From: Minisyncoccota bacterium
Lineage (GTDB): Bacteria > Patescibacteriota > Minisyncoccia > Phycocordibacterales > UBA12088
Reading direction: 5' to 3'
Length of the DNA: 64,000 nt
NCBI GenBank assembly: GCA_041920275.1
Contig: JAYRSE010000001.1
Location: 2,004-66,003 of the forward strand
Each line of letters opens with the position of its first letter. Position 1 is the stretch's first letter. The notes under the pieces are model-generated. The model was not told the DNA's origin. It saw nothing but the letters and a program-made list of their open reading frames with translations, and made no database searches. Below, piece by piece: positions 3,792 through 60,132 of the stretch. A program made the position numbers and the translations under genes.

Positions 3792-4742
3792 ATGTTTCCG
3801 GCCTATCTTTCTTTGTCACTCTTCGCACTCTTCGCGTTCACCACGCAAGCGCTTGTGCCCCTGTGGGAGCGAGTGGGGAAAGATGAATCCGCCGTCACAG
3901 AACTTCCTCCCATTACGCTCACTTTTGTCGGCGACATGATGTTCGATCGGTACGTGCGCGAAAAGGCGGAGGTGAACGGCTATGATGTCATCCTTGAGAA
4001 GACGGCGCCGCTCTTTGCATCGAGCACTTACGTGTTCGGCAATCTTGAGGGACCGATCACCACCTTCGCGCCCGTCGCGGACTATCGCGACAGCGGGCCG
4101 GACCATTTCCGCTTTACGTTCGCCACGAAGACCGCGCGCGTGCTTCGCGAGCACCGATTCAGCGCCGTTACCCTCAACAACAACCATATCACCAACTTTG
4201 GGACGGAAGGAGTGGTGCAGACCAAGGAGTGGCTCGCGCATGCCGGTGTGGGCCACGTTGGTGCACCGGATGATCTGTACACTCCCTGGCGAACGGCGAC
4301 CAGCGGCATTGAGATCGCTGTCTATTCGTACAGTCCATGGCACACAAAAGACTTTGAGCGCATGCGTATGAGCATCGGAGCCGAAGCAACATCGACGCTC
4401 GTCGTGGTGCTTACGCATTGGGGTGAAGAGTACGAGACGGTACCGAATGCAGCACAGGTTGCGCGTGGGCGTTCATTCGTCGATGCGGGAGCGGACCTTG
4501 TGATCGGCTCGCATCCGCATGTGATCCAGCGCAAAGAAGTATACAAAGGGGTGCCGATCTATTACTCGCTCGGCAACTTCGTGTTCGATCAGTATTTCTC
4601 GAGCGAGGTGCAATGCGGCGCGGTCGTTTCGTACACCCGTTTTCCCGACGGTGGTGCGACCACGAGTGAAGCGTTCATCGAACTGCGTAAAGACGGCACC
4701 ACCGCCACCTCGTCATGTGCTTCGAGCGTTTTGGTGTTGTGA
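3792..4742 (+). CDS. capA: CapA/PgsA-family poly-gamma-glutamate synthesis metallophosphatase-like protein
   Basis: Signal/TM N-terminus. Motifs FVGDMMFDR, NNNHITNFG, VVLTHWGEEY, GSHPHVIQ and SLGNFVFDQ are typical of CapA (calcineurin-like). Confidence 0.8.
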   Translation: MFPAYLSLSLFALFAFTTQALVPLWERVGKDESAVTELPPITLTFVGDMMFDRYVREKAEVNGYDVILEKTAPLFASSTYVFGNLEGPITTFAPVADYRDSGPDHFRFTFATKTARVLREHRFSAVTLNNNHITNFGTEGVVQTKEWLAHAGVGHVGAPDDLYTPWRTATSGIEIAVYSYSPWHTKDFERMRMSIGAEATSTLVVVLTHWGEEYETVPNAAQVARGRSFVDAGADLVIGSHPHVIQRKEVYKGVPIYYSLGNFVFDQYFSSEVQCGAVVSYTRFPDGGATTSEAFIELRKDGTTATSSCASSVLVL

Positions 4743-4840
4743 CCAACGCAGGATGGAACACATCGTGTAGTGATGAAAACCGCATCATACGGTACTCGTG
4801 TTTCGGCCGTACCGGTAAAGAGTAAGAAATAATACCCTAT

Positions 4841-4969
4841 GAAATCACCATGAACTCCGCCTGTACACCTTATGAGAAACCGCTCCAAGGGAGCTTGCCC
4901 GGTCTTAGTTTCTCAAAAGGTGTACAGACTCCGTGTCCCGGTGGTTAGTTGAAGATGGTATAAATAATG
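4841..4969 (+). repeat. Structured intergenic repeat, copy A (nested inverted repeats around conserved 27-nt loop)
   Basis: P1 CTGTACACC/GGTGTACAG, P2 GAGAAAC/GTTTCTC, loop CGCTCCAAGGGAGCTTGCCCGGTCTTAG. ~85% identical to the copy at 21619-21748. Confidence 0.7.
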
Positions 4970-5040
4970 CTGGTTGTGGTGGGCTTGTTTTGTGTTTCGG
5001 AGTGCTGGGCGGGGTATTGCGTGGGTGCTATACTGGTTCA

Positions 5041-5424
5041 ATGCAGCATCAAGAACATTGGCGACGGTTGCTGCTCCGCACCGAGGAAACGGCACGCCGC
5101 TACGAGGAGGCCTGTGCACAGCAGAAGGCCGACGGTGGGTGTCGTTTATGCAACGATCCCGAGTCGATCGAGGAGTACGCGCATTGGCGTCTCATGCCGA
5201 ACAAGTTCCCGTACGATCGTCTCTTCGCGAAAAGCGACATGCTGGTGACTCGGCGTCATACCGATGAGTACGATCTTTCGGACGAGGAGCGTTCGGAGCT
5301 GCTTTCGCTCAAGGTGGGAGTGCTTGCCGACCGGTACGACTCACTGCTTGATCATTTGCCACGTCAAAAATCCATTCCGCACCACTACCACGTGCATCTT
5401 GTCTCGTTCAAACGACCGCTCTAA
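5041..5424 (+). CDS. HIT (histidine triad) family protein
   Basis: C-terminal H-H-Y-H-V-H-L-V histidine-triad motif. TATACT box 6 nt upstream of the ATG. Confidence 0.65.
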   Translation: MQHQEHWRRLLLRTEETARRYEEACAQQKADGGCRLCNDPESIEEYAHWRLMPNKFPYDRLFAKSDMLVTRRHTDEYDLSDEERSELLSLKVGVLADRYDSLLDHLPRQKSIPHHYHVHLVSFKRPL

Positions 5425-5612
5425 AATCGACCACCGCGTCAGTGCAGGTGATCCGAGTGGGGAGTGAACGGGTGCGGTGCGAATGTGGCGGGAACGGGTC
5501 GGCGCATCGTCCAACCAAGGTCTTGTCGTGCACAATGACCCGCAACGGCAGACGAGGGATTGCCTCAATGGGCCTGTGCGCCAGGAATCAAGGCGAAAAA
5601 ACGGTAAAAAAC

Positions 5613-5641
5613 TTGCATTGACAACAAACATGTGGTATAAT
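5613..5641 (+). promoter_or_regulatory. Strong sigma70-type promoter TTGCAT-17nt-TATAAT with downstream GGAG RBS
   Basis: -35 at 5613-5618, -10 at 5636-5641, GGAG ~9 nt before ATG 5673. Confidence 0.55.
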
Positions 5642-5672
5642 ATAAAAAGGTAAACGAACTGGAGTAGTAATT

Positions 5673-5912
5673 ATGAAGTTTTTCGCACTCGCGACCGTGC
5701 TCATGCTGGCAGGTTGTCAGCATGTGCAGTACGTACCGTACGTTCCGCCCAATTCGCAGGCTGATTCGGCGCGGTACGTGAACGAGACGCTTCGGCCGGG
5801 ACTTTTCCCATGGCTTGAGCACTGTCGGCGTTCGGCGTCAGCGACCGCCTACTCGACCGAGTCGAGAAGTGGTCATCAGTATCAGGCAAATCAGGTCTGT
5901 AAGGACCGTTAG
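5673..5912 (+). CDS. Small lipoprotein (lipobox LAGC)
   Basis: Signal peptide MKFFALATVLMLAGC. Consensus promoter and RBS are upstream. Confidence 0.55.
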   Translation: MKFFALATVLMLAGCQHVQYVPYVPPNSQADSARYVNETLRPGLFPWLEHCRRSASATAYSTESRSGHQYQANQVCKDR

Positions 5913-5921
5913 GAGGTTCAG

Positions 5922-6455
5922 GTGAGAGCAATTATTCTTATCATCGTCTCGTTGCTTTTCGTGGGGTGCACCGGCATGGCGCCGAGGACCCCGCAGGAAG
6001 TGGCTGCCATGTGTCCCCCCGGTTCGCAAGCGGTAGCAGAAGCGGTCGCCGGCGAACGGGGACCATCGAACAAAAAGGCGATGCGAGTCGCTTGCGTGAG
6101 ACCGGACGGGACCTATGTTGCCGCACGAGAAGCGGCGGTGAACGGGCCCAGAGGGTATCAGGCCAAGCGGGAAGAGGTGACGAACTTCGAACGCAAGAAC
6201 ACGTCCGTTGCGATAGAAAATAGGGCGCGGGGTGTTCATGCGGAAGCCGGATACTCCTACCGGAACCCGTTTTTTGGCCTGCGCGTGCAGGCTGGTACGG
6301 GTGGCGATCGTTACCCGTACGGGGGGTACCGCTCATTTCAGGACCGGAGAGGGATGTGCTATGTAGCACATAAGAACGGCCTCTCGGGGTGGTACCACAA
6401 GTCATCGGTGTCGCGCTCCGTCACAGAGAGTGCAAGGAGTGTGCGATGTTATTGA
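5922..6455 (+). CDS. Lipoprotein (lipobox LFVGC), hypothetical
   Basis: Signal peptide with LFVGC, placed in tandem after the previous lipoprotein gene. Confidence 0.6.
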   Translation: MRAIILIIVSLLFVGCTGMAPRTPQEVAAMCPPGSQAVAEAVAGERGPSNKKAMRVACVRPDGTYVAAREAAVNGPRGYQAKREEVTNFERKNTSVAIENRARGVHAEAGYSYRNPFFGLRVQAGTGGDRYPYGGYRSFQDRRGMCYVAHKNGLSGWYHKSSVSRSVTESARSVRCY

Positions 6456-8409: not shown

Positions 8410-10959
8410 CTACTTGAACAACTCGCGTATTGCTCGTCGGGTTTCGGATTGGGGGACCATTTGGAAGTCGTATTGCGAGAAGGTTTTGAGGGTGCCTGCC
8501 TTACGCTTCGCACTCTCGGTCATTTTTTGAAATACAAGCTCTTTGTATTTGGTGTCGAGGTTTTCCGCGAGTTGGTCCCCTTTGCTTTCGAGGATATACA
8601 CGAGTTCCACCTTTCCTTCGTCGTTTTGTTTGGCAATCACAAAGTCGGGGTATATCTTATTTTTCCGCCACGCTTGTATGTGGTAAAAACTATCTTCCAC
8701 TTTGTTACGCATCCACCACAGTACCTTGTCTTGTTTGCCGAGTTCTTCCACGATCTGCTTTTCAAGGTTGTTCATGGTCACAAAGTCTACCGCACCATGC
8801 AAAGACTTCGGGTCGGTGCGTATGGGGACCATCTTTTTCGGGTCGTCTTCGCTCTCTTTGGCGGGAGCATTGTACTTTTCGGGTACGTGGTAGCCACCTT
8901 CTTCAGTGATAGCCAGAAATACCGTACCATCCTCCACAAGGGCATTAAATACCGCGAGCTCTTCGGTGTGGCACACTTGCTTCACAAAGGACGCAAGCTC
9001 ATGCGCTATGTACCCAAAGTCGCTTTCTATGATCTCGCGTGAAAATGTCTCTGAAAGCCCCGCTACGACGCGCTCGACAAAAGAAAAAGCAACAAAGGGG
9101 TTGGTGATGTGTTCGGAAACGATTTGTGTGATGATGTACTCATCGCCACCCTCCACACCCTCTTTTTCGTAGGCGGTCCCGTCACCTTGGTACGTGTCAC
9201 CGAGGAAATACTGCAAGTCTTTACCGCGCACTTTTTGCTGTCCGACACTTGCACGCAATGTTTGAAGGAGTGGGGCAATGTCTACCGTGTGCCAATCTAT
9301 CCGTGGCAAGATGTCGGAGCGGTAGGAAAGTACCCGCACGCGTTTGCCGTCTTGTATGTGCCACAAGGGAAGGGCGAGTGACGAAGCGTACTTCCTTTTG
9401 AAGTGTGGCTGTATGGGAAACGCCCGCCATGCAAGCTCTCGCCCGCTTGGTCCCGACGTACCACGTACGGTGTCCACGACGTCCTCAAGTCCGTCCGCCT
9501 CAAGTGATTTTTTAATGCCGTGCAAAAGCTCTTGCCCGTCGCTATGGTTGAAAAACGTGTAGCACTGATCAAGCTCCGGTACGCCCGTCCTCTTGGTGTA
9601 TGGCTGGCGCAACACACGCCCTACGAGCTGGGTGAGTGCGGTCACGCTACGTGAAGCAGACACCACCCCGAGTACATAGGCAAACGGGCAGTCCCACCCC
9701 TCCATGAGTGCCTGTTTGGTGATGATGTAGCGTATTTCACAGGTGTCTGAAAGGAGTACCTCATCTTTGAGCTCATCGACGTACGAGGACTTTATAGCTA
9801 TCTGTGAGGCGGGTATGCCCAGTTCCGAAAGGTAGTCTTTTATGTCGTCGGCGTGTACGTGCATACCGTCACGCTTATCCTTTCCCGTGCGTTCTGCCTG
9901 TAAAAGGGCAATAGGGCGTATGTAGTCACCGCGCGCCTCACCGTGTCGCTTTGCAATCTTTTCGAGTTCATCGCGTCTATCCCGCACATCATGAATAAGT
10001 TCGCGCCAGTTGTCGTTTTTTTCGGGGCGGACGTTTATCGGGAGCTTGATCATTTCATCGCGGTACAGGTCCATGCCTTTTATTTTTACGAGCACATTCA
10101 TGTCGGGCTTGGGGGTGGCGGAAAGTCCCACGATACAGCGCGGGTTTAAGGAGTCGAGTACTTTCCTTTGTGCGTCGGTATACACTTTGTGGAACTCATC
10201 GACGACAAAGAGTGGGTTGCATACACGTACGACATTGCCGAGACTTGTCTTCAGGGAAGGTATACCGAGGAAGTCATCTTTGAAGCACTCAAGCGAAGGG
10301 TACGCCTCCAAAAGTGCCACTATCTTTTCCCGCTCATGTTCGTGAGGGAAAAAGTCCATGAACACACCCGAGTCTTTGAACACTTTCAAGTTTTCTTTAC
10401 TCTCTTGGTTTGCCGACTGTATCATGAGCATGAGCACCACCAAGTTTTCTTCTATATCTTGATAGCGTAGCGTGTCGCTTTTTTCCACTATGCGCGTACG
10501 GTCCCCGCTCATTTGGTCTAATATTTGGCGGTATGGGTTTGTTTTGTCTTGTAGTTTTTCTATGGTCTGGCGGTATATCGCTTCGGAGTGCACGATCCAT
10601 ACCACGAGCCCTTTGCTTTTTTCCAAAAACTGCTCGTGAAATAGTTCAATAGCCTTTACCCCGAGGAGTGTCTTTCCGCCACCTGTCGGCACTTGCAGAC
10701 ACAGGCGCGGGTACAGCGTACCGTCTGCCGTGGCGGGTAGGTCCCGAAACGCGTCACCTTGAAACGTGTCGCCGTATGCTTTGTGGTACAGGGTACGCAA
10801 GGGCGGGGCGTCCGCCTTGAGGTCGTGTACCATGTCGGAGAGTCCCGCTTGTGTAAGCTTCGCCACCTTTTCCTCATGCGCGCCGAGCTCACTTTTCCAA
10901 GCACGGAAAAATGCTTCAAGCTCGTGCACTACTTTTTGTTGCGAACTTTTGAGGAGCAT
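8410..10959 (-). CDS. res: Type III restriction endonuclease Res subunit (SF2 helicase-nuclease)
   Basis: Walker A PTGGGKT, DEFH box VVDEFHKV, LSATP motif. 849 aa. Immediately downstream of the mod gene. Confidence 0.85.
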   Translation of the reverse strand: MLLKSSQQKVVHELEAFFRAWKSELGAHEEKVAKLTQAGLSDMVHDLKADAPPLRTLYHKAYGDTFQGDAFRDLPATADGTLYPRLCLQVPTGGGKTLLGVKAIELFHEQFLEKSKGLVVWIVHSEAIYRQTIEKLQDKTNPYRQILDQMSGDRTRIVEKSDTLRYQDIEENLVVLMLMIQSANQESKENLKVFKDSGVFMDFFPHEHEREKIVALLEAYPSLECFKDDFLGIPSLKTSLGNVVRVCNPLFVVDEFHKVYTDAQRKVLDSLNPRCIVGLSATPKPDMNVLVKIKGMDLYRDEMIKLPINVRPEKNDNWRELIHDVRDRRDELEKIAKRHGEARGDYIRPIALLQAERTGKDKRDGMHVHADDIKDYLSELGIPASQIAIKSSYVDELKDEVLLSDTCEIRYIITKQALMEGWDCPFAYVLGVVSASRSVTALTQLVGRVLRQPYTKRTGVPELDQCYTFFNHSDGQELLHGIKKSLEADGLEDVVDTVRGTSGPSGRELAWRAFPIQPHFKRKYASSLALPLWHIQDGKRVRVLSYRSDILPRIDWHTVDIAPLLQTLRASVGQQKVRGKDLQYFLGDTYQGDGTAYEKEGVEGGDEYIITQIVSEHITNPFVAFSFVERVVAGLSETFSREIIESDFGYIAHELASFVKQVCHTEELAVFNALVEDGTVFLAITEEGGYHVPEKYNAPAKESEDDPKKMVPIRTDPKSLHGAVDFVTMNNLEKQIVEELGKQDKVLWWMRNKVEDSFYHIQAWRKNKIYPDFVIAKQNDEGKVELVYILESKGDQLAENLDTKYKELVFQKMTESAKRKAGTLKTFSQYDFQMVPQSETRRAIRELFK

Positions 10960-10961
10960 GA

Positions 10962-12569
10962 TTATTTTCTCTGAAAGAGGGCAAAGGGTATTTGTACAAA
11001 GGAAATACCGCGTGCATCAAGCTCATCTTTGTCGATAAAACAGGCGGGTGCGTACACTATCTTTTTACCTTCGGTGTCTTGCACGAGGTCAAGCCAGTCG
11101 CGGGTGAGGGCGAGGGTTTTCAACCCTTCGAGCGTGTCTTTGTACAAACAGTACACGCGGGTGTGTTTGGTACCCGAGACTATCTCCCATGTGGCGTTTG
11201 GCTTCTTTACTTCCTCTATGGGCTTGCCGGTCGCGAGATAGTGTACGTATTTGGCGAAACTCTCCCATGAGGGCAAGTCTTTGCCTTTCAGTATGTCCCG
11301 CGCGTTTATGGAAGGACCGAGGGTGTAGTAGGTGAAGCCCACGTCGAGCTTGTCGCGTTTGATCACGCGACGTACACGTTCAGCGGTTGTTTTGTTTGCA
11401 TAACTCTCTGTTTCGACAAGAATGTACTTTCTATCGCCACCGTCTTCTTTGTTGAGCTCTAGTATAGCTTGTGCAGTGGTGCCAGAGCCAGCAAAGGAGT
11501 CAAGGATAACATCCTTGTCAAAAGTAACTTGTTGCATGAGAGTCTTGATAAGGGATACTGGTTTTGGGAAAGGAAAAGTATCATCGTCGAGTATTTCTCG
11601 AACTTCACGAGTGCCGTGTAATGTGTATCCGACAGATTCATTAAGTATAGTTGAAAATCCTGTATTTTTGTCTGCCAATTCCGAAAAAAATTTCTTCTCT
11701 CTTGGTCGTCCCTCCACTTTGCGAGGAAATATTATTCGACTGTCTTCAATTTTACCTTTCATTGTTTCTTTTGAGTATCGCCATCCAGTGTCCTTTGGAC
11801 ATGAGTAACTTTGTCCAGTTTTTGGGTCAATAATCGGGTAGTGTAAGTTGGGTCTTTGTGATTCATTTGCAAGTCCAAGAATACTGTTACTCATCCATAT
11901 GCCACGTTCGTCATTGTCTGGGTTTGAATATTTGCCAATATCAGAAGGCTTACCCTTGAATGAAAGCGTATCATTCTTGCCATAAACAAGAATATACTCA
12001 TGGTCGTTAGATACTTTGTTGATATTCCTACTGTCAACAATCTGTCTACTTTTCCAAATCAATGTGGTTAAAAAGTTTTTATCGCCAAATACTTCATCTA
12101 GTAGAATTTTCAATCTTGATTGTTCTATATCGTCGATACTGATGAATATGACACCATCTTCTGCCAACAACTCCCGTAAAAGTTTGAGACGCGGAGTCAT
12201 CATGCACAGCCACTTGTCGTGGCGGGTGAGGTCTTCACCCTCTTTGCCGACCGTTTGCCCGAGCCAGTCTTGTATCACAGGACTGCTCACGTTGTCGTTG
12301 TATACCCACCCCTCATTGCCTGTGTTGTAGGGTGGGTCGATGTAGATACATTTCACTTTGCCTTGATATTTAGGAAGAAGTGCTTTCAAGGCAAGGAGGT
12401 TGTCGCCTTCGATGATCATGTTTTCGTGTTCACCCGCGCCCGCAAGCGAGGACTTCTTGTCTTTATCGAGCGTGTGGTAGGGCACCGAGAGGTGGTGGTT
12501 CCATACCGCCGTTTTGCCTTTGAAGTTGAGTGATGCCATGGTGTGTGTATTATGGCACAAGTATACCAC
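10962..12569 (-). CDS. mod: Type III R-M Mod subunit, N6-adenine DNA methyltransferase (beta class)
   Basis: Motif IV IYIDPPYNTG precedes motif I DSFAGSGTTAQA. 535 aa. Adjacent to res. Confidence 0.85.
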   Translation of the reverse strand: MVYLCHNTHTMASLNFKGKTAVWNHHLSVPYHTLDKDKKSSLAGAGEHENMIIEGDNLLALKALLPKYQGKVKCIYIDPPYNTGNEGWVYNDNVSSPVIQDWLGQTVGKEGEDLTRHDKWLCMMTPRLKLLRELLAEDGVIFISIDDIEQSRLKILLDEVFGDKNFLTTLIWKSRQIVDSRNINKVSNDHEYILVYGKNDTLSFKGKPSDIGKYSNPDNDERGIWMSNSILGLANESQRPNLHYPIIDPKTGQSYSCPKDTGWRYSKETMKGKIEDSRIIFPRKVEGRPREKKFFSELADKNTGFSTILNESVGYTLHGTREVREILDDDTFPFPKPVSLIKTLMQQVTFDKDVILDSFAGSGTTAQAILELNKEDGGDRKYILVETESYANKTTAERVRRVIKRDKLDVGFTYYTLGPSINARDILKGKDLPSWESFAKYVHYLATGKPIEEVKKPNATWEIVSGTKHTRVYCLYKDTLEGLKTLALTRDWLDLVQDTEGKKIVYAPACFIDKDELDARGISFVQIPFALFQRK

Positions 12570-12805: not shown

Positions 12806-12878
12806 TGGACCCGAGAGGACTCGAACCCCCTACCTCCTCAGTGCAAATGAGGCGCTCTACCAGGTGAGCTACGGGCCC
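12806..12878 (-). tRNA. tRNA-Ala (anticodon UGC)
   Basis: Manual fold: acceptor GGGCCCG/CGGGUCC, D-arm GCUC-ACCUGGUA-GAGC, anticodon loop UUUGCAC, T-arm GGGGG-UUCGAGU-CCUCU, discriminator A. A hairpin plus T-run terminator follows the 3' end. Confidence 0.8.
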
Positions 12879-19635: not shown

Positions 19636-19799
19636 TGCGTCACCTCTTTTGATTGCTTAAACTCTTTAGATTATAACATTAATCTATTATCTTTGCAATA
19701 CCACGTGCTCACGATAGCCACTCGTCTGCGGGACTTGAGAAGTCGATGGTATGGAAAAGTGAAAGAGAAATATTTACGCTCGCGTAGTACACTGTATCC

Positions 19800-20366
19800 G
19801 TGGAACAATGTGATGGACAGACCGACGAAGAACTGATGAGGCGCGTGCCGGACGAACGCGAAGTGTTTGCGTGCATCATTCGTCGGTACGAGGACAAGCT
19901 CCGGCGTTATTTGAAGCGCGTGATGCCGTGGATGGGAGATGAGACCGAAGATGTGCTCCAAGAGATCTTCATCAAAGTGTACGTGCATGCACGCGGTTTT
20001 GATACCACACTCTCGTTCTCTTCATGGGTGTATCGGATCGCGCACAACGAAGCGGTGAGCTGGTTGCGCAAGAAAAAAGCCCGGCCGGAGACGGTCGAGT
20101 TGGGTGAGGACGAAGTGCAGACCTTCCTTGAGAGTGTCGAGGTGGCGCGTGACCACGCGGAGGAGCGTTTGACCCGCGATGCGGTCGCTCGAGTACTTGC
20201 GCGTATGCGGGAGAAGTACCGTGCGGTGCTCGTACTGCGCTTCTTGGAAGGCAAAACGTACGAGGAGATAGGTGACATTCTCACCGTACCGAACGGGACC
20301 GTTGCCACGTTGGTGCACCGAGCAAAAAAAGAATTTAGCAGTCTATATGACACCCACCATGCTTGA
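19800..20366 (+). CDS. ECF-type RNA polymerase sigma-70 factor (GTG start)
   Basis: Region 2 (FACIIRRYEDKLRRYL, VYRIAHNEAVSWLRKK) and region 4 HTH (LVLRFLEGKTYEEIGDILTVPNGTVATLVHRAKKEF). Confidence 0.8.
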   Translation: MEQCDGQTDEELMRRVPDEREVFACIIRRYEDKLRRYLKRVMPWMGDETEDVLQEIFIKVYVHARGFDTTLSFSSWVYRIAHNEAVSWLRKKKARPETVELGEDEVQTFLESVEVARDHAEERLTRDAVARVLARMREKYRAVLVLRFLEGKTYEEIGDILTVPNGTVATLVHRAKKEFSSLYDTHHA

Positions 20367-21114
20367 TCGAACATCACTTGCCGAACGTGTCTTCGAGACC
20401 ATCGACACGCGCGGTGTGGAGCCGAAGCCGCACTGGCATTTTCTACTCCACGAGTGGGTGGTATGGGGAATCGCATGCGTCATGTTCCTCTTGGGAAGTG
20501 TCGCGACGGCGCTTTCGTTGTATATTGTCGAGGCTTCCTTCTTTGTTGAACGTCACATCGCACAGACGGACCTCGGCCGCATTTTCGGGATGTTGCCGTG
20601 GGTGTGGTTGGTGCTTATCGTCGTGGCGGTCGCGTATGCGGTGTACGCCCTCTCGTCGACCGAGCATGGGTACCGATGGCACGTCGGCTACTTGGTACTC
20701 GCGGCACTTTTTTTGAGCGTTTGCGCAGGATATGCGCTCAACCGGTTCGGTATGGGTGAAGCGATCGATCGGTACTTGCTCACCCAGGTCGCACTGTACC
20801 GTCCGATGTCCGGCTTTTTTCCCGAGCACTGGATGAACGTCTCCGAGGGAAGGTGGGTGGGTGTGGTCGCAGACGAGGTCGACCCGAACGTCTTCGTGCT
20901 ACACTCCATCGATGGGACGGTGTGGAACGTGCGGGTGACCGACGAGACCGTGTACCGAGGATTACAAGACGTCCATGAGTATATGCGGGTGCGGGTGGTC
21001 GGCACCAGCACCGAAGAGGGTATGTGCGAAGCGTACGAGGTGCACACCTTCCGCGGCCGCGGGGGAGGGATGCGCCGAGAACATGCCCAACCTGTGCTCT
21101 TGTTCACCTTTTGA
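20347..21114 (+). CDS. Putative anti-sigma factor / membrane protein co-transcribed with ECF sigma
   Basis: ATG overlaps the sigma stop by 20 nt. The product has 4 TM helices and a C-terminal soluble domain. Confidence 0.5.
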   Translation: MTPTMLDRTSLAERVFETIDTRGVEPKPHWHFLLHEWVVWGIACVMFLLGSVATALSLYIVEASFFVERHIAQTDLGRIFGMLPWVWLVLIVVAVAYAVYALSSTEHGYRWHVGYLVLAALFLSVCAGYALNRFGMGEAIDRYLLTQVALYRPMSGFFPEHWMNVSEGRWVGVVADEVDPNVFVLHSIDGTVWNVRVTDETVYRGLQDVHEYMRVRVVGTSTEEGMCEAYEVHTFRGRGGGMRREHAQPVLLFTF

Positions 21115-21144
21115 TCCAATCCCATACCATATTCAACTAACCTG

Positions 21145-21240
21145 CAGGATGCTCCGCCGGCATGCTTCACAAGAGACCTTCTAGGGCGCTTACCCGGTCT
21201 TAGTCTCTTGTGAAGCATCCCGGCTTTGCCCATAATCGTA
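21145..21240. repeat. Structured intergenic repeat, copy C (divergent stems, same conserved loop)
   Basis: Perfect 17-bp stem GATGCTTCACAAGAGAC/GTCTCTTGTGAAGCATC enclosing loop CTTCTAGGGCGCTTACCCGGTCTTAGT. Confidence 0.65.
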
Positions 21241-21381
21241 TTCCTTGTGGTCAGTTGGGGGGAACAATGGTCCTTTGAAGGGTTCCGTGATGGTGCCGAG
21301 GTGGTACCCTTCGATTCGTGCGGTCACATCATAACGAGTCTCCACACCTCGTCGATCTCTTCTCGTGCAGTGGTCGGGGCA

Positions 21382-21579
21382 TCACCGCTTTGGTGCACCT
21401 GACACGCGCGCCCACCAGTTCGTCATGGGACAGTTACCGGTGATACCCGCACGAACAAGTCCGATGCCCATGAGGCCCGGGAGTACGAGCGGGTACCATT
21501 GTTCGGTGATCGCGTATGCCGCAAGAGAAGTAAGTATGATGATGCCGACGGTCAAGTGGGTCTTTTGCAATGGGTTCAT
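21382..21579 (-). CDS. DUF2892 (YgaP C-terminal-like) small inner-membrane protein
   Basis: 65 aa with two TM helices and the characteristic GLxRAGITGNCP motif. Confidence 0.6.
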   Translation of the reverse strand: MNPLQKTHLTVGIIILTSLAAYAITEQWYPLVLPGLMGIGLVRAGITGNCPMTNWWARVSGAPKR

Positions 21580-21618
21580 AATGTGAGTGGTGTGAAGGGT
21601 GTTAGTTATATCAACCTA

Positions 21619-21748
21619 AGAAACCATCAGGAACTCCGCCTGTACACCTGTTTGAGAAACCGCTCCAAGGGCGCTTGCCCGGTCTTAGTCTTTCAAAAAG
21701 GTGCACTGGCATCGTGTCCCATTGGTTAGTCGAATATGGTATTAATCG
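21619..21748. repeat. Structured intergenic repeat, copy B
   Basis: ~85% identity to copy A across ~125 nt, including loop CGCTCCAAGGGCGCTTGCCCGGTCTTAG. Stems are partly degraded relative to A. Confidence 0.7.
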
Positions 21749-22023
21749 ATCGAGAGCGCTTCGAGCGCTTGGGCGATATTGCGACTTCGTTCGGGCTCCG
21801 GCAGGTCTGCGCATGTGATGATCTGTGAAGAGATGTACAGCTCCCCGACCTTGCGGAGCGCGCCTCGTGCCGCGCGGATCTGGGAGACGACCTCCTTACA
21901 TCCGTACTGTTCGGGTGATTCGAGCATGCGGCGTATCGCCTGTATCTGGCCACTCGCACGGTTCAGGCGGTGTGCGATACGGTCCATCGATACGGTATTT
22001 TTGTGCGGTACTGGGGCATTCAT
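21742..22023 (-). CDS. CsoR/RcnR/CstR-family (DUF156) transcriptional repressor
   Basis: 93 aa with alpha-helical CsoR architecture. Cys42 and Cys71 are 29 residues apart, as in CsoR C36/C65. The His position is Gln67. Confidence 0.75.
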   Translation of the reverse strand: MNAPVPHKNTVSMDRIAHRLNRASGQIQAIRRMLESPEQYGCKEVVSQIRAARGALRKVGELYISSQIITCADLPEPERSRNIAQALEALSID

Positions 22024-22089
22024 AGGTACTGGTATGGGTATGTTAGATTAAATCTTGTAATTCTGTTTTAAATAATAAGTATTCATCTA

Positions 22090-22120
22090 TTGACAGCAGT
22101 ATACCCCATTGGGTATACTG
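22090..22120 (+). promoter_or_regulatory. Promoter TTGACA-18nt-TATACT overlapped by CsoR-type operator palindrome CAGTATACCCCATTGGGTATACTG
   Basis: -35 at 22090-22095, -10 at 22114-22119. The 24-nt inverted repeat at 22097-22120 matches the CsoR operator pattern ATACC-N-GGGTAT. ATG is 9 nt after the -10. Confidence 0.55.
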
Positions 22121-22128
22121 CCGCAACT

Positions 22129-23733
22129 ATGCTTGATACACGCATCTTGCGATCCTTCGCTCTGGTGAGTACACACCGAACGGTCGCACTCGTGAGTGCT
22201 GCGGCTCTGTTCGCAGTGGTTCTTTTTGTTGCACTTCCCGACAAGAGTCGCGTGGTGAGCGACGACCAGACGGTGCCCACCCATATCCTTGTCCGTGCGG
22301 AACGGATACCGCTTCCGTTCGAAGGCGTCTTGGTATCAAAGGAGGATGCCGTACTGGCGTCACAGGCGCAGGGTCGCTTGAGCGACTTACCGGCTCGCGA
22401 GGGATCGGTGGTGCATGCCGGCGACGTGCTTGCGGTCGTTGGTCAACCGGTGCTTGCGGCTCAGCGGTCGACGCTGGTCGCCAAGATACGGCTCATGGAA
22501 GAGCAACGTGGACTGGTGGAAGCTGAGCGCGACACCGCTTTGGTGCTCGCGGCGAAGGCGGCGCAAACGAATGCGACCGTTGGTACCGCACAGGTGGCAC
22601 TTACCGATGCGCAGGTGAGCACGGCGGCAAAGGCGCTGCGCGTGACCCTCACACAGCAGTACCTTTCCGCAACCGAGGCGCTGAAATTCCTTGCAGACAC
22701 CGCGGCCCTTTCAACAAGCGAAGTTTCCGAGCTTCGAGTGAAGGCGGCCCGTACGCTTGCCGGCTCCGAGCGTGCGAGCTACTTGGGTCAGCGGGTCATG
22801 ACAGGTGGAAGAGATCGCGGTCTGTATGATGATCTGCAGGCATTAAAAACGGATGAACCCCAGGTACTGCTCGATCTTTCTCAGCGCTTGCTCGACGGTC
22901 TTTCAACACTCGCCCGTGCGTACGAATCGGCCGAACGTAAGGCCTACGAGCGTACCAGTGCTTTGAGCGAAGGTGAGCGTGCACAGTACAACACCTACCG
23001 CAATGCGGTGCGGACCGCACAGGCGTCCGTGGAGGGCGCGCAGGGTATGCTCCGTACCGCGCTTGAGGCACACGAACTTGCGGTCGCAACTGCGGGTGGA
23101 ACACGAACGGTTCGTGATGCGGAACTCGAGCAAGCGAAAGTGGTGCAGGCCGGAGAGATGCGCGTGAGCGGAGCGACGCTTGCGAACCTGTATGCCGAGC
23201 TGCGCGCACTCGACGCTTCACTCGGGGAAGCGGTCGTGAAGGCGCCCTATACGGGTACGATCGTGGAGACATTCGTCGACCCCGGCACCTATGTGGCACC
23301 CGGAACACCGCTCGTGCGCATACAGAGCGCGACCGGTCTCGAGGTGCGTGCTACGATCCCGGGGCGTTATCTGTCTCGAATGACGATCGGTGCGTCCGCG
23401 ACCTTTCGCGATGGGGGAGCTGGAGTGCTTGATCGGATCTCACCGCACGTCGATGAACGTACGGGCGGGGTGACCGCATACATCGTGCTCAATGCGGTGG
23501 AGGCGCCGTATACCACCGGGTCGCACATCCGTGGCGAGCTTGAGCTTGTGGTCGATAAGGATGAGGACGGTGTGTATGGCATCCCGCACCGGTACCTCTC
23601 GTTCGATTGGAGCGGGCCCGTGGTGCGTACCGAAACGAATATGACACTGCCGGTCACGATCGTGCGTGACATGGGACAGGTAGTGTACGTGACCGGTCGG
23701 GACCTTGTAGACGGCCTTGCGCTTGTCCCGTAG
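22129..23733 (+). CDS. Efflux RND periplasmic adaptor (HlyD/membrane-fusion protein family)
   Basis: N-terminal TM anchor, long Ala-rich coiled-coil, C-terminal beta-barrel-like region. Immediately precedes the RND pump gene. Confidence 0.75.
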   Translation: MLDTRILRSFALVSTHRTVALVSAAALFAVVLFVALPDKSRVVSDDQTVPTHILVRAERIPLPFEGVLVSKEDAVLASQAQGRLSDLPAREGSVVHAGDVLAVVGQPVLAAQRSTLVAKIRLMEEQRGLVEAERDTALVLAAKAAQTNATVGTAQVALTDAQVSTAAKALRVTLTQQYLSATEALKFLADTAALSTSEVSELRVKAARTLAGSERASYLGQRVMTGGRDRGLYDDLQALKTDEPQVLLDLSQRLLDGLSTLARAYESAERKAYERTSALSEGERAQYNTYRNAVRTAQASVEGAQGMLRTALEAHELAVATAGGTRTVRDAELEQAKVVQAGEMRVSGATLANLYAELRALDASLGEAVVKAPYTGTIVETFVDPGTYVAPGTPLVRIQSATGLEVRATIPGRYLSRMTIGASATFRDGGAGVLDRISPHVDERTGGVTAYIVLNAVEAPYTTGSHIRGELELVVDKDEDGVYGIPHRYLSFDWSGPVVRTETNMTLPVTIVRDMGQVVYVTGRDLVDGLALVP

Positions 23734-26700
23734 GTGCGGCTCTTGCGAGAAAGGATGCGAAAAAGCTGTGGTATGAAGCATGAACAGTCACCATTCGGTC
23801 GGAATAATGAAGAAGGGGTACCGACGACCTTGGTGCATGACACGGTTTCCGATTCGAGCGAGGGTTTGAATTGGACGGGCAAGCTTGCGGAGACGTTCGT
23901 CATGAACCGTTCGCTCTCGTTGTTGATCGTGGGACTCGCACTTGCCTTTGGAGTGTTCGGCTTTTTGGCAACGCCGAAGCAGTATAATCCTCAGATCACG
24001 CGTCCCGCGTTCATCGTGGAAGTGTCGTATCCCGGTGCGACCGTAGATGAAGGGTACCGATTGGTTGCGACGGAACTCGTGGAAAAGGTTCAAGCTCTCG
24101 CGGGTGTGGATGAAGTGACCGTGCAGGTCCGTGACGGTGCTTCCATTGCGGCGGTAGTCATTTTTGACGTCGGCTTTTCGAAAGATACGGCAAAGGTCTC
24201 CCTGCAAACCCAACTCGCGCAGCATAGCTACCTGGCGCGTGGCGCCATTCGACAGCCGACGATCCGCGAGCTCGATCCGGACGAGGTTCCCATCCTGACG
24301 GTCCGGATCGTGGGTGCGGAGCATTCGCTCGCTTCACTGCGCGAGCACGCCGTTTCCGTGTCGCACGTACTTGCCGATGTGCCCGGCGTAGCCGAGGTCG
24401 AAGTGCACGGGGGGTATGCACCTGCTCTGGTGGTGGAATTGCTTCCGGAGGAAATGGCTCGCAGTGGTGCATCGCTTGGTGATGTGCAACGTGCACTAGC
24501 GGATGCGAGTACCGAACACTCGCTTCTTGCGTTAGGTGATGGTACGCGTCGCGTGGTCGTGGATATAGAGAATGCGGCTATGACACCCGAGGCCCTGGCG
24601 GAGGTGGGAGTACATCAAAGCGTACGTTTGGGTGATATCGCCCGCATATACGAGGGGACGAAAGAGGTATCATCGTATGTTCGTGCGCTGTATCCGGATG
24701 GTGTGCCGGAAGATGCGATCCTGCTTTCCGTCTCGAAGCGCGGAACGGCGAGTGCTCCGTCCGTGTCTCGGGACGTGCTTGAAGCACTGCGTGCCACACT
24801 CACGAACACCGCACACACGGGCGTCTCATTCGAGGTGATCAACGATGATGGTGCGATGGCAAGTGCGGAGATCGGCGGACTCATGATGAACCTCATCCAG
24901 TCCATCGTGATCGTCGGAGCGGTGCTCATGCTTTTCCTCTCACCGCGCAGTGCGGTGGTGGTGGGACTCTCCATACCGCTCACGATGCTCATCGTGTTCG
25001 GGCTCGGATACTTGGAAGGTCAGACCGTCAATCGCATCACACTCTTTGCGCTCATTTTGTCGCTGGGCCTTTTGGTCGACGCGGCGATCGTGGTCGTCGA
25101 GGCGATCCATACCGCGACCAAGCGGGTATGCTCGGAACAGGCGCGTGTGCGTGCGGTGGTGCGTGCCGTGAACGGCATCGGCGTCGGTCTGTTCCTTTCC
25201 ATGCTCACCAGCGTGGTCGTGTTCATGCCCATGCTGTTCATCACCGGCATGATGGGGCCGTACATGGGCCCCATCGCGTTCTTCGTACCGGCCGCACTTC
25301 TCGTTTCGTTCCTGATCGCGGTCACGGTCATGCCATACTTCGCGCTCTCTTTTATGCGGAGTGATGAAAGGACCACTGCCGCTTCCCGATTCTTCAACGG
25401 TCTCATTGAAACGATCACGCGGCGATACTCGGACCTGTTGTGTTCGATCATCGGCTCGCGAGTGATACAACGGCGCGTGTTGGTGTCCGCGGGTATCGCG
25501 TTTGCGCTCGCGCTTACGTTACCTGTGGCGCAGTTCGTGCATTTCCAAATGCTACCGAAAGCGGATCGTGACCAGTACTTCGTTTACGTTGATATGCCCG
25601 CCGGCACTGATGTTGTCGCGACGCGAGTTGCCGCCGAAGAGGTGGCACGGATCGCACTTGCGGACGAATACGCTCGGTCGGTGCAGCTGTTCGTCGCCGA
25701 TTCCCAGGTGCTGGATTTTAACGGCATGTTCAAGGGGGCGCATGTGCGCACCGCACCGCATCAAGCGACCCTTCGGGTCAACCTGGTACCGAAAGGCGAG
25801 CGGGATGATTCCTCGACCGATATCGTGGAACGTGCGCGTGCGGAGTACGCGGAACACGATGTCGCCTCGAAGGCGGAACGGGTCCGTTTCGTAGAGGACC
25901 CTCCCGGACCGCCGGTGTCCGCAACGTTCGTTGCAAAGGTATTCAGTGGTGAACATGCTGACCGCGTTGCCGTTTCGAACGGACTGTATGAGCTGCTCAG
26001 GGGCGTTTCCGGTATCGTGGACGTTGACGATGGAGCCGAGGAAGGGTACCTGCGGGCGGTACTCACGGTCGATCATGTGGCCGCGCGTTCGTTCGGTGTT
26101 TCGGTCGAAGACATCCACTCGGCACTCACGGTGCTCGGAGCTCCGGTCGAGGGAGCGCAGTACCATGACGCGCATCTTGCGGAATACGCCCCGATAGAGT
26201 TGCGTGTACCCCGTGAAGCGCGGAGTGCCCCGAGCGATCTTTCGTTCGTGACGGTCAGATCGCGGGAAGGTGTACCGGTTCCTCTGGAGTCGCGTGTTGA
26301 CATTCGGTATGAACGGAGTAGGGAGCCGGTGCATACCGAAGGGATGGTGCCGATCCGCTCCGTTACCGCGGAAACACAGGGCAGGTCGATTGTGTATGTC
26401 ATGCTCGAGGTGATGCGAAAGGCGCGAAGCGAAGGGATCGCGGGGTACCACGTCATCGCTTGGGACCTGTTCGGTATGGACCTTAAACGCGACGGGGCCC
26501 GTGTACGGATCGAGTGGGGTGGAGAGTGGGAGATGACTCTGGAGAATTTTCGCGATCTCGGTCTTGCGATGCTTGCCGCCATCTTCTTTGTATACGCGAT
26601 ACTGGTCGCGCAGTATCGCACGTTCCGCACACCCGGGCTTATCCTTACCACGGTGCCGCTCGGTTTGGTGGGAATACTCGCGGGCTTTTCGGTGCTCGAC

Positions 26701-27039
26701 GCGGTGGCGGGAGTACCGCTTACGGCGACCGCACTCATCGGCTTCATTGCACTCATTGGAATCGTCGTTAATAACGCGATCATCTTTCTTGAACGTTTCG
26801 ATGAGGTGCGGCAAGACGGTCTCGCCTATGATGCGGCTCTTGTGGAGGCGGCGCGTTCTCGTTTGCGGCCGATACTCCTTACATCGCTCACCACGGTGCT
26901 CGGCTCGCTCACGATCGCGTTCGATCCCGTGTGGAGCGGTCTTGCGTGGGCGATCGTCTTCGGCCTCTCGCTCTCTACGCTCCTTACGCTCGTGGTACTG
27001 CCGACGCTGTTGGTCTACACGGGACGGGGAGACAAATGA
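23734..27039 (+). CDS. RND efflux transporter permease (AcrB/CusA/CzcA superfamily); exact start uncertain (GTG 23734, or downstream ATG/TTG)
   Basis: ~1050-1100 aa, 12-TM RND architecture with two large periplasmic loops. Typical N-terminal segment ...LIVGLALAFGVFGFLATPKQYNPQITRP..VSYPGA. Confidence 0.85.
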   Translation: MRLLRERMRKSCGMKHEQSPFGRNNEEGVPTTLVHDTVSDSSEGLNWTGKLAETFVMNRSLSLLIVGLALAFGVFGFLATPKQYNPQITRPAFIVEVSYPGATVDEGYRLVATELVEKVQALAGVDEVTVQVRDGASIAAVVIFDVGFSKDTAKVSLQTQLAQHSYLARGAIRQPTIRELDPDEVPILTVRIVGAEHSLASLREHAVSVSHVLADVPGVAEVEVHGGYAPALVVELLPEEMARSGASLGDVQRALADASTEHSLLALGDGTRRVVVDIENAAMTPEALAEVGVHQSVRLGDIARIYEGTKEVSSYVRALYPDGVPEDAILLSVSKRGTASAPSVSRDVLEALRATLTNTAHTGVSFEVINDDGAMASAEIGGLMMNLIQSIVIVGAVLMLFLSPRSAVVVGLSIPLTMLIVFGLGYLEGQTVNRITLFALILSLGLLVDAAIVVVEAIHTATKRVCSEQARVRAVVRAVNGIGVGLFLSMLTSVVVFMPMLFITGMMGPYMGPIAFFVPAALLVSFLIAVTVMPYFALSFMRSDERTTAASRFFNGLIETITRRYSDLLCSIIGSRVIQRRVLVSAGIAFALALTLPVAQFVHFQMLPKADRDQYFVYVDMPAGTDVVATRVAAEEVARIALADEYARSVQLFVADSQVLDFNGMFKGAHVRTAPHQATLRVNLVPKGERDDSSTDIVERARAEYAEHDVASKAERVRFVEDPPGPPVSATFVAKVFSGEHADRVAVSNGLYELLRGVSGIVDVDDGAEEGYLRAVLTVDHVAARSFGVSVEDIHSALTVLGAPVEGAQYHDAHLAEYAPIELRVPREARSAPSDLSFVTVRSREGVPVPLESRVDIRYERSREPVHTEGMVPIRSVTAETQGRSIVYVMLEVMRKARSEGIAGYHVIAWDLFGMDLKRDGARVRIEWGGEWEMTLENFRDLGLAMLAAIFFVYAILVAQYRTFRTPGLILTTVPLGLVGILAGFSVLDAVAGVPLTATALIGFIALIGIVVNNAIIFLERFDEVRQDGLAYDAALVEAARSRLRPILLTSLTTVLGSLTIAFDPVWSGLAWAIVFGLSLSTLLTLVVLPTLLVYTGRGDK

Positions 27040-50551: not shown

Positions 50552-50865
50552 AGTTGGTACATTGTATCACCTTCGGACGGTTCGCGTATTTTGACAAAAG
50601 TGTGGACACGGTGCACTAACGGGGGATATCACGAAAGGACCATTTCGCGCACATCTCGAAAAGGCCGCTTCGTCAACGCTGTGTTGTTGAGAGACCGCTC
50701 CTGGGCGTTTTTCCAAGTCGCAGTCTCTCGCCCGAACATGTTGACTTTCGCCACGGTTTCCCTTAACAGAGTATGAGGTGGGTGTGGCAGTTGCCCCGGG
50801 GGACCGGCTCGGGCGATCGATCGTTTCGGTTCTCATGCGCGTTCATTGTGTGATACTATGAACTC

Positions 50866-59062: not shown

Positions 59063-60076
59063 ATGAACTTCTTTGCACCGAAGCTTGGCATTGATCTGGG
59101 CACCACCACAACGCTCGTGTATGTGCCCGGCAAGGGTATCGTGTTCAATGAACCATCCGTGGTGGCCGTTTCGTTGCAGGATCGCCGAGTGCTTGCGGTC
59201 GGTACGGAAGCGAAAACCATGGTCGGGAAGACACCCGAGACGATCGTCGCATACCGCCCCATGAAGGATGGAGTGATCGCGAACTACCATGTGACGGAGA
59301 TCATGCTCGCGTACTACTTCCGTAAGGCGCTTGGTCGATTTAATCCGTTCAAGCCCGAGGTCGTGCTTTCGGTTCCCGCCGGCGTCACTTCGACCGAGCG
59401 TCGTGCGGTCATCGAGGCGGCGGTCAAGGCGGGTGCACGCCATGCTTACGTCATCAAGGAGCCGGTCCTTGCCGCGATCGGTGCCGGTATTCCGATACAT
59501 GAACCTCGTGGACACATCGTGACCGACATCGGGGGAGGAACCATCGATGTCGCGGTCATTTCGCTCGGTGGCATCGTCGCGTCGACGTCGGTCAAGTGTG
59601 CCGGCAATCATCTCGATCGCGCGATCCAGGACTATGTCAAGAAAAAGTTCAATATGGCCATTGGTGAGAAGATGGCCGAGGAGATCAAGATCACGATCGG
59701 GTCGGCACTTCCGCTCCAGGAAGATCTGGTCATGGACGTGAAAGGGCGCGACATCATCTCCGGTCTCCCGCGAACGGCCGAGATCGCGACCATTGATGTG
59801 GTGCGGGCGACCGGCAAGGAGCTGCGTGAGATGATCGAAGCGATCAAAGTGGTGCTGCAGGATACACCACCCGAGATAGCGGCGGATATCATCGATCGAG
59901 GCATCATCATGACCGGTGGCACCTCGCAGTTGCGCAATCTCGACGAGTACATCTTTCGGCGTACGGGCGTACGGGCCACGCTCGCCGAACAGGCGCCCTT
60001 GTGTGTGGCGCGAGGAACGGGTATCGCGCTTTCGCACCTTTCGACCTACAAAAAGAGCCTCTCCACCAAACGGTGA
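59063..60076 (+). CDS. mreB: Rod-shape-determining actin homolog MreB
   Basis: IGIDLGTT phosphate-1 motif; MreB length and sequence. Confidence 0.9.
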   Translation: MNFFAPKLGIDLGTTTTLVYVPGKGIVFNEPSVVAVSLQDRRVLAVGTEAKTMVGKTPETIVAYRPMKDGVIANYHVTEIMLAYYFRKALGRFNPFKPEVVLSVPAGVTSTERRAVIEAAVKAGARHAYVIKEPVLAAIGAGIPIHEPRGHIVTDIGGGTIDVAVISLGGIVASTSVKCAGNHLDRAIQDYVKKKFNMAIGEKMAEEIKITIGSALPLQEDLVMDVKGRDIISGLPRTAEIATIDVVRATGKELREMIEAIKVVLQDTPPEIAADIIDRGIIMTGGTSQLRNLDEYIFRRTGVRATLAEQAPLCVARGTGIALSHLSTYKKSLSTKR

Positions 60077-60132
60077 GATACTATCCACGGTCACGCAGCG
60101 AACATGTCGGCATTCTGGGGTATACTGGTGTC

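Follow-up and report, generated by a model that had tools for sequence, protein, structure and literature searches.

The intergenic hairpin element analyzed here is best explained as a set of MITEs (non-autonomous DNA transposons) from CPR bacteria, with a conserved hairpin as their core, a reading to which we give a probability of about 0.7. There are four copies (A to D) in the window, i.e. the whole stretch of 64,000 nt of Minisyncoccota DNA that was analyzed; sequences from other genomes and from metagenomes are designated here by L numbers. The targets of the family represented by A, B and C are TNA triplets, which become duplicated on insertion, and copies have been gained and lost between closely related genomes. 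The element is real and apparently undescribed: a MITE family of CPR bacteria, the hairpin core of which is unusually conserved and common to two different carriers.

The core AGGGNGCTTNCCCGGTCTTAG was found at 4888, 21183 and 21668, only on the plus strand, in agreement with the three copies described in an earlier, sequence-only reading of this DNA. Its chance expectation in the window was 0.01, and three matches were reached in 0 of 100 shuffles. Direct reading bore out the stems proposed for the three copies, apart from the size of that of C. In copy A, CTGTACACCTTATGAGAAA (4861-4879) pairs with TTTCTCAAAAGGTGTACAG (4909-4927) with a single A·A mismatch, copy B has an A-type stem with four mismatches and one G·T, and in copy C ATGCTTCACAAGAGAC is paired with GTCTCTTGTGAAGCAT. 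The perfect stem of C had been taken as 17 bp long, but it has 16 bp, because the sequence reads CATGC and not GATGC, which makes the 17th position a C·C; beyond it there are four further pairs (CCGG/CCGG). The loop, described as invariant, is nearly but not strictly so, A and B being one base apart and the tip of C having three substitutions and 2 nt less. The identity of about 85% estimated between A and B was reproduced (85-86%, with indels), and the reading frames are not conserved between copies, as expected from the claim that this is not a peptide gene. The fourth copy, D, is degenerate and was detected with a covariance model at 50670-50747 (16.4 bits, E about 0.02-0.07); it is visibly homologous over about 150 nt to positions 11724-11801 of L031, which is a different locus. 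When folded, both strands of each window copy gave a single long hairpin (z between -2.1 and -6.2), the minus strand folding slightly better than the plus strand. The features of the copies, in window coordinates, are the following:

4830..4832, no strand: TAA, left target-site duplication (TSD) of copy A, read directly; TAA recurs after the element at 4961-4963.
4833..4960, plus: MITE copy A, 128 nt, from TACCCT to ATGGTA (79.5 bits with the covariance model); ends set by comparison with L009/L013, L006 and B.
4833..4849, plus: left terminal inverted repeat (TIR) of A, degenerate, TACCCTATGAAATCACC.
4854..4859, plus: direct repeat DR1 (ACTCCG), 5' foot of the A hairpin.
4861..4879, plus: 5' arm of the P1 stem of A.
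4880..4908, plus: 29-nt conserved tip of A, CCGCTCCAAGGGAGCTTGCCCGGTCTTAG.
4889-4891 with 4898-4900, plus: inner mini-hairpin in the tip of A (GGG paired with CCC).
4909..4927, plus: 3' arm of P1 of A.
4928..4933, plus: direct repeat DR2 (ACTCCG) of A.
4943..4960, plus: right TIR of A, GGTTAGTTGAAGATGGTA, three matches in the window versus 0.08 expected.
4961..4963, no strand: TAA, right TSD of A.
21125..21271, plus: MITE copy C, about 147 nt; the anti-sigma-like gene and the DUF2892 gene converge on the spacer that holds it.
21125-21142, plus: left TIR of C, TACCATATTCAACTAACC.
21249-21271, plus: right TIR of C, decayed.
21162..21218, plus: core hairpin of C, 60.2 bits.
21162-21177 with 21203-21218, plus: 16-bp perfect stem of C, with its 27-nt tip at 21177-21203.
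21606..21608, no strand: TTA, left TSD of copy B.
21609..21741, plus: MITE copy B, 133 nt, 77.3 bits, between csoR and the DUF2892 gene.
21660-21688, plus: tip of B, with arms at 21640-21659 and 21689-21708 and right TIR at 21724-21741.
21742..21744, no strand: right TSD of B; TTA on the plus strand is the TAA stop of the csoR-like gene (minus strand).
50670..50747, plus: copy D, degenerate, of the second carrier family, between the divergent dnaB and holB-like genes.
50695-50723, plus: type-2 tip of D, CCGCTCCTGGGCGTTTTTCCAAGTCGCAG.

The sequence-only reading had considered that compensatory change around a fixed loop is not expected of a simple REP or MITE. Nevertheless, the A/B/C family has terminal inverted repeats, target-site duplications of 3 bp and empty sites in related genomes. 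Its members are about 130-165 bp long with 5'-TACCAT...ATGGTA-3' ends, and the three window copies (128, 133 and about 147 nt) are non-coding and of the size of MITEs. The pairing of TACCAT(N)..AACYAACC with GGTTNGTT..ATGGTA is found in A, B, C, L006, L009, L013 and L031_C. The triplets flanking the element at the left and right are TAA and TAA in A, TTA and TTA in B, TGA and TGA in L009, TAA and TAA in L013, TTA and TTA in L006, and TTT and TTG in L031_C, so that five of the six readable copies have perfect duplications, all of them TNA. Between L009 and L013, the stretch of 160 nt that runs from ATACCAT to ATGGTAT has an identity of 96%, with unrelated sequences at both sides. Duplications of 3 bp of the TWA/TNA type are typical of the PIF/Harbinger-IS5 superfamily (PMC4482050). 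A duplication of TA, as in the IS630/mariner reading, was rejected on the basis of the empty site of B, which holds a single TAA.

The sites of the copies were compared with two related genomes, in which the flanking proteins are 78-88% identical. The spacer between csoR and the DUF2892 gene measures 162 nt in the window versus 24 nt in L035 and L036, where the empty site of B consists of the single TAA followed by a homologous leader of 24-26 nt. Copy B is inserted exactly at the TAA stop of csoR, with TAA duplicated and the native leader of 24-26 nt kept after the insertion. In the same way, copy A is absent from the orthologous PGA_cap/HIT-like spacer of the relative L031, the C-type copy L031_C occupies a site that is empty in the window, and D-type copies are located at different loci in the window and in L031. 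In the spacer of C, L035 has a 31-nt remnant identical to the window and about 200 nt have been deleted; copy C predates the split between the window and L035. Besides, copies B, D and L031_C have decayed in place. The promoter region of the sigma factor gene (about 19700-19760 in the window and about 19820-20040 in L031) contains a stretch of 52 nt, from TACCAC to GATGGTA, that may be an old core-less relic of a TACCAT MITE, and in L031 a full C-type copy is nested inside it.

The search for the core in related genomes that had been suggested from the sequence gave further copies in CPR bacteria. Scanning public genomes and metagenomes, we found about 24 further non-redundant copies, all from CPR/Patescibacteria. 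The exact core was present at 10 loci when one genome per species was scanned, 8 of them in CPR (Saccharibacteria, Paceibacterota and Parcubacteria), and the two matches outside this group had no stem at all. In metagenomes there were about 15 further true loci, most matches being CPR and the remaining ones stemless. Exact copies amount to one or two per representative genome, in only seven representative genomes. Every true copy has the tip CCGCTCC(A/G)AGGGCGCTTGCCCGGTCTTAG inside a stem of 14-28 bp, the sequence of which varies from copy to copy. L029 has a second copy (about 6150-6210, minus strand), truncated at 5' and with the variant tip GGGGCGTTTGCCCAAGTCTTAG, directly after a full one, and both are followed by CGCTCCAAC, an echo of the start of the tip.

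A covariance model, also suggested previously, was built together with an alignment, and stem covariation across copies was very strong. In the ungapped alignment of 22 copies, 94.4% of the stem cells were paired, compared to 33-45% with slid partners, and 16 of the 19 P1 pairs had changes on both sides. With 28 copies the paired cells were 93.1% (slid partners 32-49%), and 17 of the 25 pairs were doubly changed. The P1 arms show identity at the random level with complementarity kept. At the inner mini-hairpin (P2) there was a single double change, GGGC/GCCC to GGCC/GGCC. The uniformity of the tip is partly an ascertainment effect of the retrieval by exact tip pattern, and the tips of the copies retrieved by covariance model were more diverged. 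Even so, the nine tip bases that lay outside the search pattern had a pairwise identity of 94% versus 33% (about random) for the distal stem. The repeats at the foot of the hairpin, DR1 and DR2 (RCTCCGYC), resemble their partner in the same copy more than their counterparts in other copies (p=0.0006). At 17 of 23 loci it is the G-rich strand on which the element reads; a bias of replication strand (17 to 6) was rejected as explanation, being confounded with the coding strand.

The hairpin is real, its tip is conserved and its stems covary fully, and to this extent the hairpin proposed from the sequence stands. What is not supported is the step from compensatory change to a selected RNA. Stem mismatches comprise 13 G·T versus 17 A·C, which gives no signal of an RNA strand; both strands fold, and copies decay in place. 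Compensatory change alone does not prove an RNA, because templated repair within a DNA palindrome would produce the same pattern, and selection on an RNA is not required. The complementarity of P1 probably has one or both of two sources: proliferating lineages are selected for fold-back, or one arm of the palindrome serves as template for the repair of the other. We consider that the tip is kept by purifying selection, and most likely, as our best guess, it is a putative binding site on the folded strand for a protein, either a host factor or the mobilizing enzyme.

The core consists of DR1 (RCTCCGCC), P1 of 15-28 bp, the 29-nt tip, P1' and DR2. As a module it is separate from its carriers, since the same core is found in a second carrier with different ends and also occurs bare. 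The second carrier has the ends GTAACTGCTCACA...TGTGAGYAGTTAC and an 8-bp duplication, and its members are four metagenome copies, D and the relative of D. Its duplications were GACAGTAG/GACAGTAG, CTCTGGTG/CTCTGATG and TTATCCAC/GTATCCAT, with 8/8, 7/8 and 6/8 matching positions. The cores of the two carriers are related even in the distal stem (L006 versus L026). Bare cores follow housekeeping genes, about 6-50 nt beyond their stop codons; the genes are rpoC, metK (twice), an Asx-tRNA synthetase gene, secA, a PBP gene, a methyltransferase gene and two consecutive pilin genes. Among co-directional gene pairs they are co-oriented with the flanking genes about 7-8 to 1, which hints at a role at the transcript level or at a strand-specific mechanism of insertion. 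They are not explained by DDE transposition, given that they have no recognizable TIR or TSD of either carrier, and an empty site was found for none of them. After metK the core is present in two of eight relatives, plus one possible remnant with a deleted loop; an element conserved by the host at the 3' end of metK was rejected, as it is absent in six of the eight. In L039, at 640-670 after metK, there is a 9-bp hairpin (TTAGAAACC-GAC-GGTTTCTAA) flanked by ACGCTCC and CGCTTCGC that may be a core without its tip. The string GTTCGAATC near this hairpin was part of no tRNA in an Rfam search of L039.

We infer that the A/B/C family depends on a DDE transposase acting in trans, of the IS5/PIF-Harbinger kind, where duplications of 3 bp are typical. 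Counted against the MITE reading is that neither an autonomous element with matching ends nor a transposase turned up among the ORFs scanned in the window, and that no transposase recurs among 84 neighboring ORFs. In the window and 34 loci the TIR motif was found at MITE copies only, with no cognate autonomous element, and a Pfam analysis of the 84 ORFs, from 21 loci, showed no recurrent gene family near the copies. Also counted against it is the fact that the tip is better conserved than the TIRs, which is unusual for a MITE. Two transposase genes were considered and rejected. One is an IS30-like gene of L024 (228-1220, in the region 100-1400), which has a truncated copy of the second carrier on one side and a full one on the other, abutting GTTAC and GTAAC, respectively or in reverse, at its two sides; its ends are its own inverted repeats, of the TTGAATTCTATCTTGAAA type, and differ from those of the MITE. 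The other is a RAYT-like Y1 (IS200-type) transposase gene (224 aa, 5005-5679) in L033, a genome related to the window, where it is located beside a fragment of an rve integrase gene (region 4448-5679) and is unlinked to copies of the element.

The bare cores and the conservation of the tip have to be weighed for other explanations. The core could be primarily a host RNA element that the MITEs only spread. Co-transcribed with the gene before it, as a hairpin in the 3'-UTR or between cistrons, it would protect the message of that gene, be cut by a double-strand RNase or recruit a CPR protein by its tip. The position after the stops of housekeeping genes, mostly in co-orientation, the strong conservation of the tip, the double change in P2 and the fact that in A and C the P1 stem is better kept than the outer TIRs point in this direction. 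We find it unlikely, however: G·T mismatches do not outnumber A·C, the lack of a U-tract rules out an intrinsic terminator, B runs antisense to its operon, the genes on either side of D are divergent, the presence after metK is patchy, some copies have decayed in place, C was deleted in a relative, and exact copies are rare. We saw no evidence for a conserved host RNA. A riboswitch, an intrinsic terminator or an integron attC site are very improbable in spite of the strong hairpin, the position after genes and the loose resemblance of GAGAAAC/GTTTCTC to attC. The sequence-only reading had already found no riboswitch class to match and no more than that resemblance to attC, and in this it is supported. 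The boxes of attC (R''/L''-L'/R') have the form RYYYAAC...GTTRRRY at the base of the stem, a consensus that GTTTCTC does not fit, the conserved part here is the loop and the variable one the stem, the reverse of attC, and the neighbors are housekeeping genes. These neighbors are unrelated to each other, with the element usually at their 3' side, and there is no consistent class of downstream gene as for a riboswitch. Nor is there an Rfam match. As for terminators, the stem of 15-28 bp with a 29-nt loop is followed by no run of T, and canonical terminators exist elsewhere in the window.

Another explanation is that the core is a mobile element of single-stranded DNA, moved by an HUH/Y1-type enzyme as in REP-RAYT or IS200/IS605, which would recognize the tip and make its cuts in the RCTCCG motifs at both sides of the hairpin, inserting the core into both carriers and at the 3' ends of genes. 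This would account for a core with related distal stems (L006, L026) within carriers with unrelated ends, for the covariation of DR1 and DR2 within copies, for a conserved tip on a stem free to vary, for the truncated second copy of L029 and for the orientation on the G-rich strand, and a RAYT-like Y1_Tnp gene does exist in a related genome (L033). We regard it as quite improbable, given that no Y1 gene adjoins any copy or is found in the window (tblastn with the Y1 protein of L033 gave no match in the window or in the element loci), that the genome with the Y1 gene has no copy in 36 kb and no hairpins flanking the gene, that no empty site of a bare core was found and that the strand bias is confounded with gene orientation. 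A broader alternative, doubtful but deserving more weight, is that the core of 85-95 nt is an autonomous unit merely carried by the MITEs, either an undescribed CPR substrate of structure-specific transposition or recombination of single-stranded DNA or a protein-binding RNA module at gene ends, the tip being the recognition site of a conserved CPR protein.

No known family was found to match the element. An Rfam search, as had also been suggested, gave only tRNA-Ala over the whole window at gathering thresholds and, in E-value mode, generic noise of miRNA hairpins far below threshold for both regions and L039. There was no match in plasmid and phage collections, a single chance match without stem in viral contigs, and nothing relevant in literature searches for CPR with repeats or ncRNA or for the tip sequence. 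By inspection, no consistent pattern was seen for a boxA/boxB-like tip, a sigma-54 or sigma-70 promoter, an IHF site, a CsoR operator or an anti-Shine-Dalgarno role of CUCC. The closest likeness is to the Tourist-like MITEs and derivatives of IS5 and PIF-Harbinger, with which the element shares the size (128-165 bp), the lack of coding capacity, the imperfect TIRs, the 3-bp T-N-A duplications and the insertion polymorphism between relatives. Unlike them, it is most conserved at the center, this center is present also in a family with 8-bp duplications, and no parent transposon was found. The Correia, ERIC/IRU, BOX and RUP repeats are likewise intergenic and palindromic, about 100-170 bp in size, with long hairpins, often co-transcribed, conserved at a site in their center, which in Correia is an IHF site, and with no known transposase. 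However, the arms of Correia and ERIC are conserved whereas the stem of the CPR element is free to vary between subfamilies, and it differs from all of these repeats in sequence, host group and low copy number. REP/REPIN sequences with their RAYT (Y1 HUH) enzymes are also extragenic hairpins at gene ends, with short conserved foot motifs, and what is recognized in them is the structure and not the sequence of the stem. This identity was rejected because here the stem varies, even within one genome, and the loop is conserved, with four copies in 64 kb; besides, there is no GTAG-type foot motif, the copies are tens at most and not hundreds, and no RAYT gene is linked. Sites of attC share with the element the imperfect palindromes at the 3' end of genes, the recognition of the folded strand and the conserved structure with variable sequence. 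They conserve the R and L boxes at the base of the stem and vary the loop, and the CPR element has neither integrase nor cassette array.

Several features of the surroundings deserve mention. At 8410-12569 of the window (minus strand) there is a type III restriction-modification pair (ResIII helicase and N6_N4 methylase) with a GC of 0.47-0.50, versus about 0.56 elsewhere, adjoining tRNA-Ala (12806-12878); it looks like an acquired island. The region 19800-27039 codes for an ECF sigma factor and a membrane anti-sigma-like protein, followed by a metal-resistance cluster (csoR-like repressor, DUF2892/YgaP-like small membrane protein, HlyD-type adaptor and RND pump), and two MITE copies (B and C) are located inside it. 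At 5020-5045 of the window and at 11070-11095 and 11860-11920 of L031, genes appear to start a few bases after an extended -10 (TGnTATACT or TGGTATAAT) with no Shine-Dalgarno sequence, which suggests that their mRNAs may be leaderless or nearly so. The right end of the MITE, ATGGTATAA, resembles an extended -10 box. At the edge of the window (60001-62907) there is a large TraG/VirD4-like coupling protein (DUF87, TraG-D_C and T4SS-DNA_transf domains), which fits the conjugation-type secretion systems reported in Patescibacteria.

CPR/Patescibacteria genomes are tiny and streamlined, and the data presented here provide a clear case of active MITEs in them, including an insertion onto a stop codon inside an operon. 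Two unrelated transposon shells carry one and the same hairpin core, which is also found bare where housekeeping genes end. There is also a word of caution in that a DNA palindrome can give rise to perfect covariation of the stem around a fixed loop, and such a pattern is by itself no proof of a structured RNA. If it is true that the tip is a protein-recognition site, it would point to a new nucleic-acid-handling activity in these poorly known bacteria.
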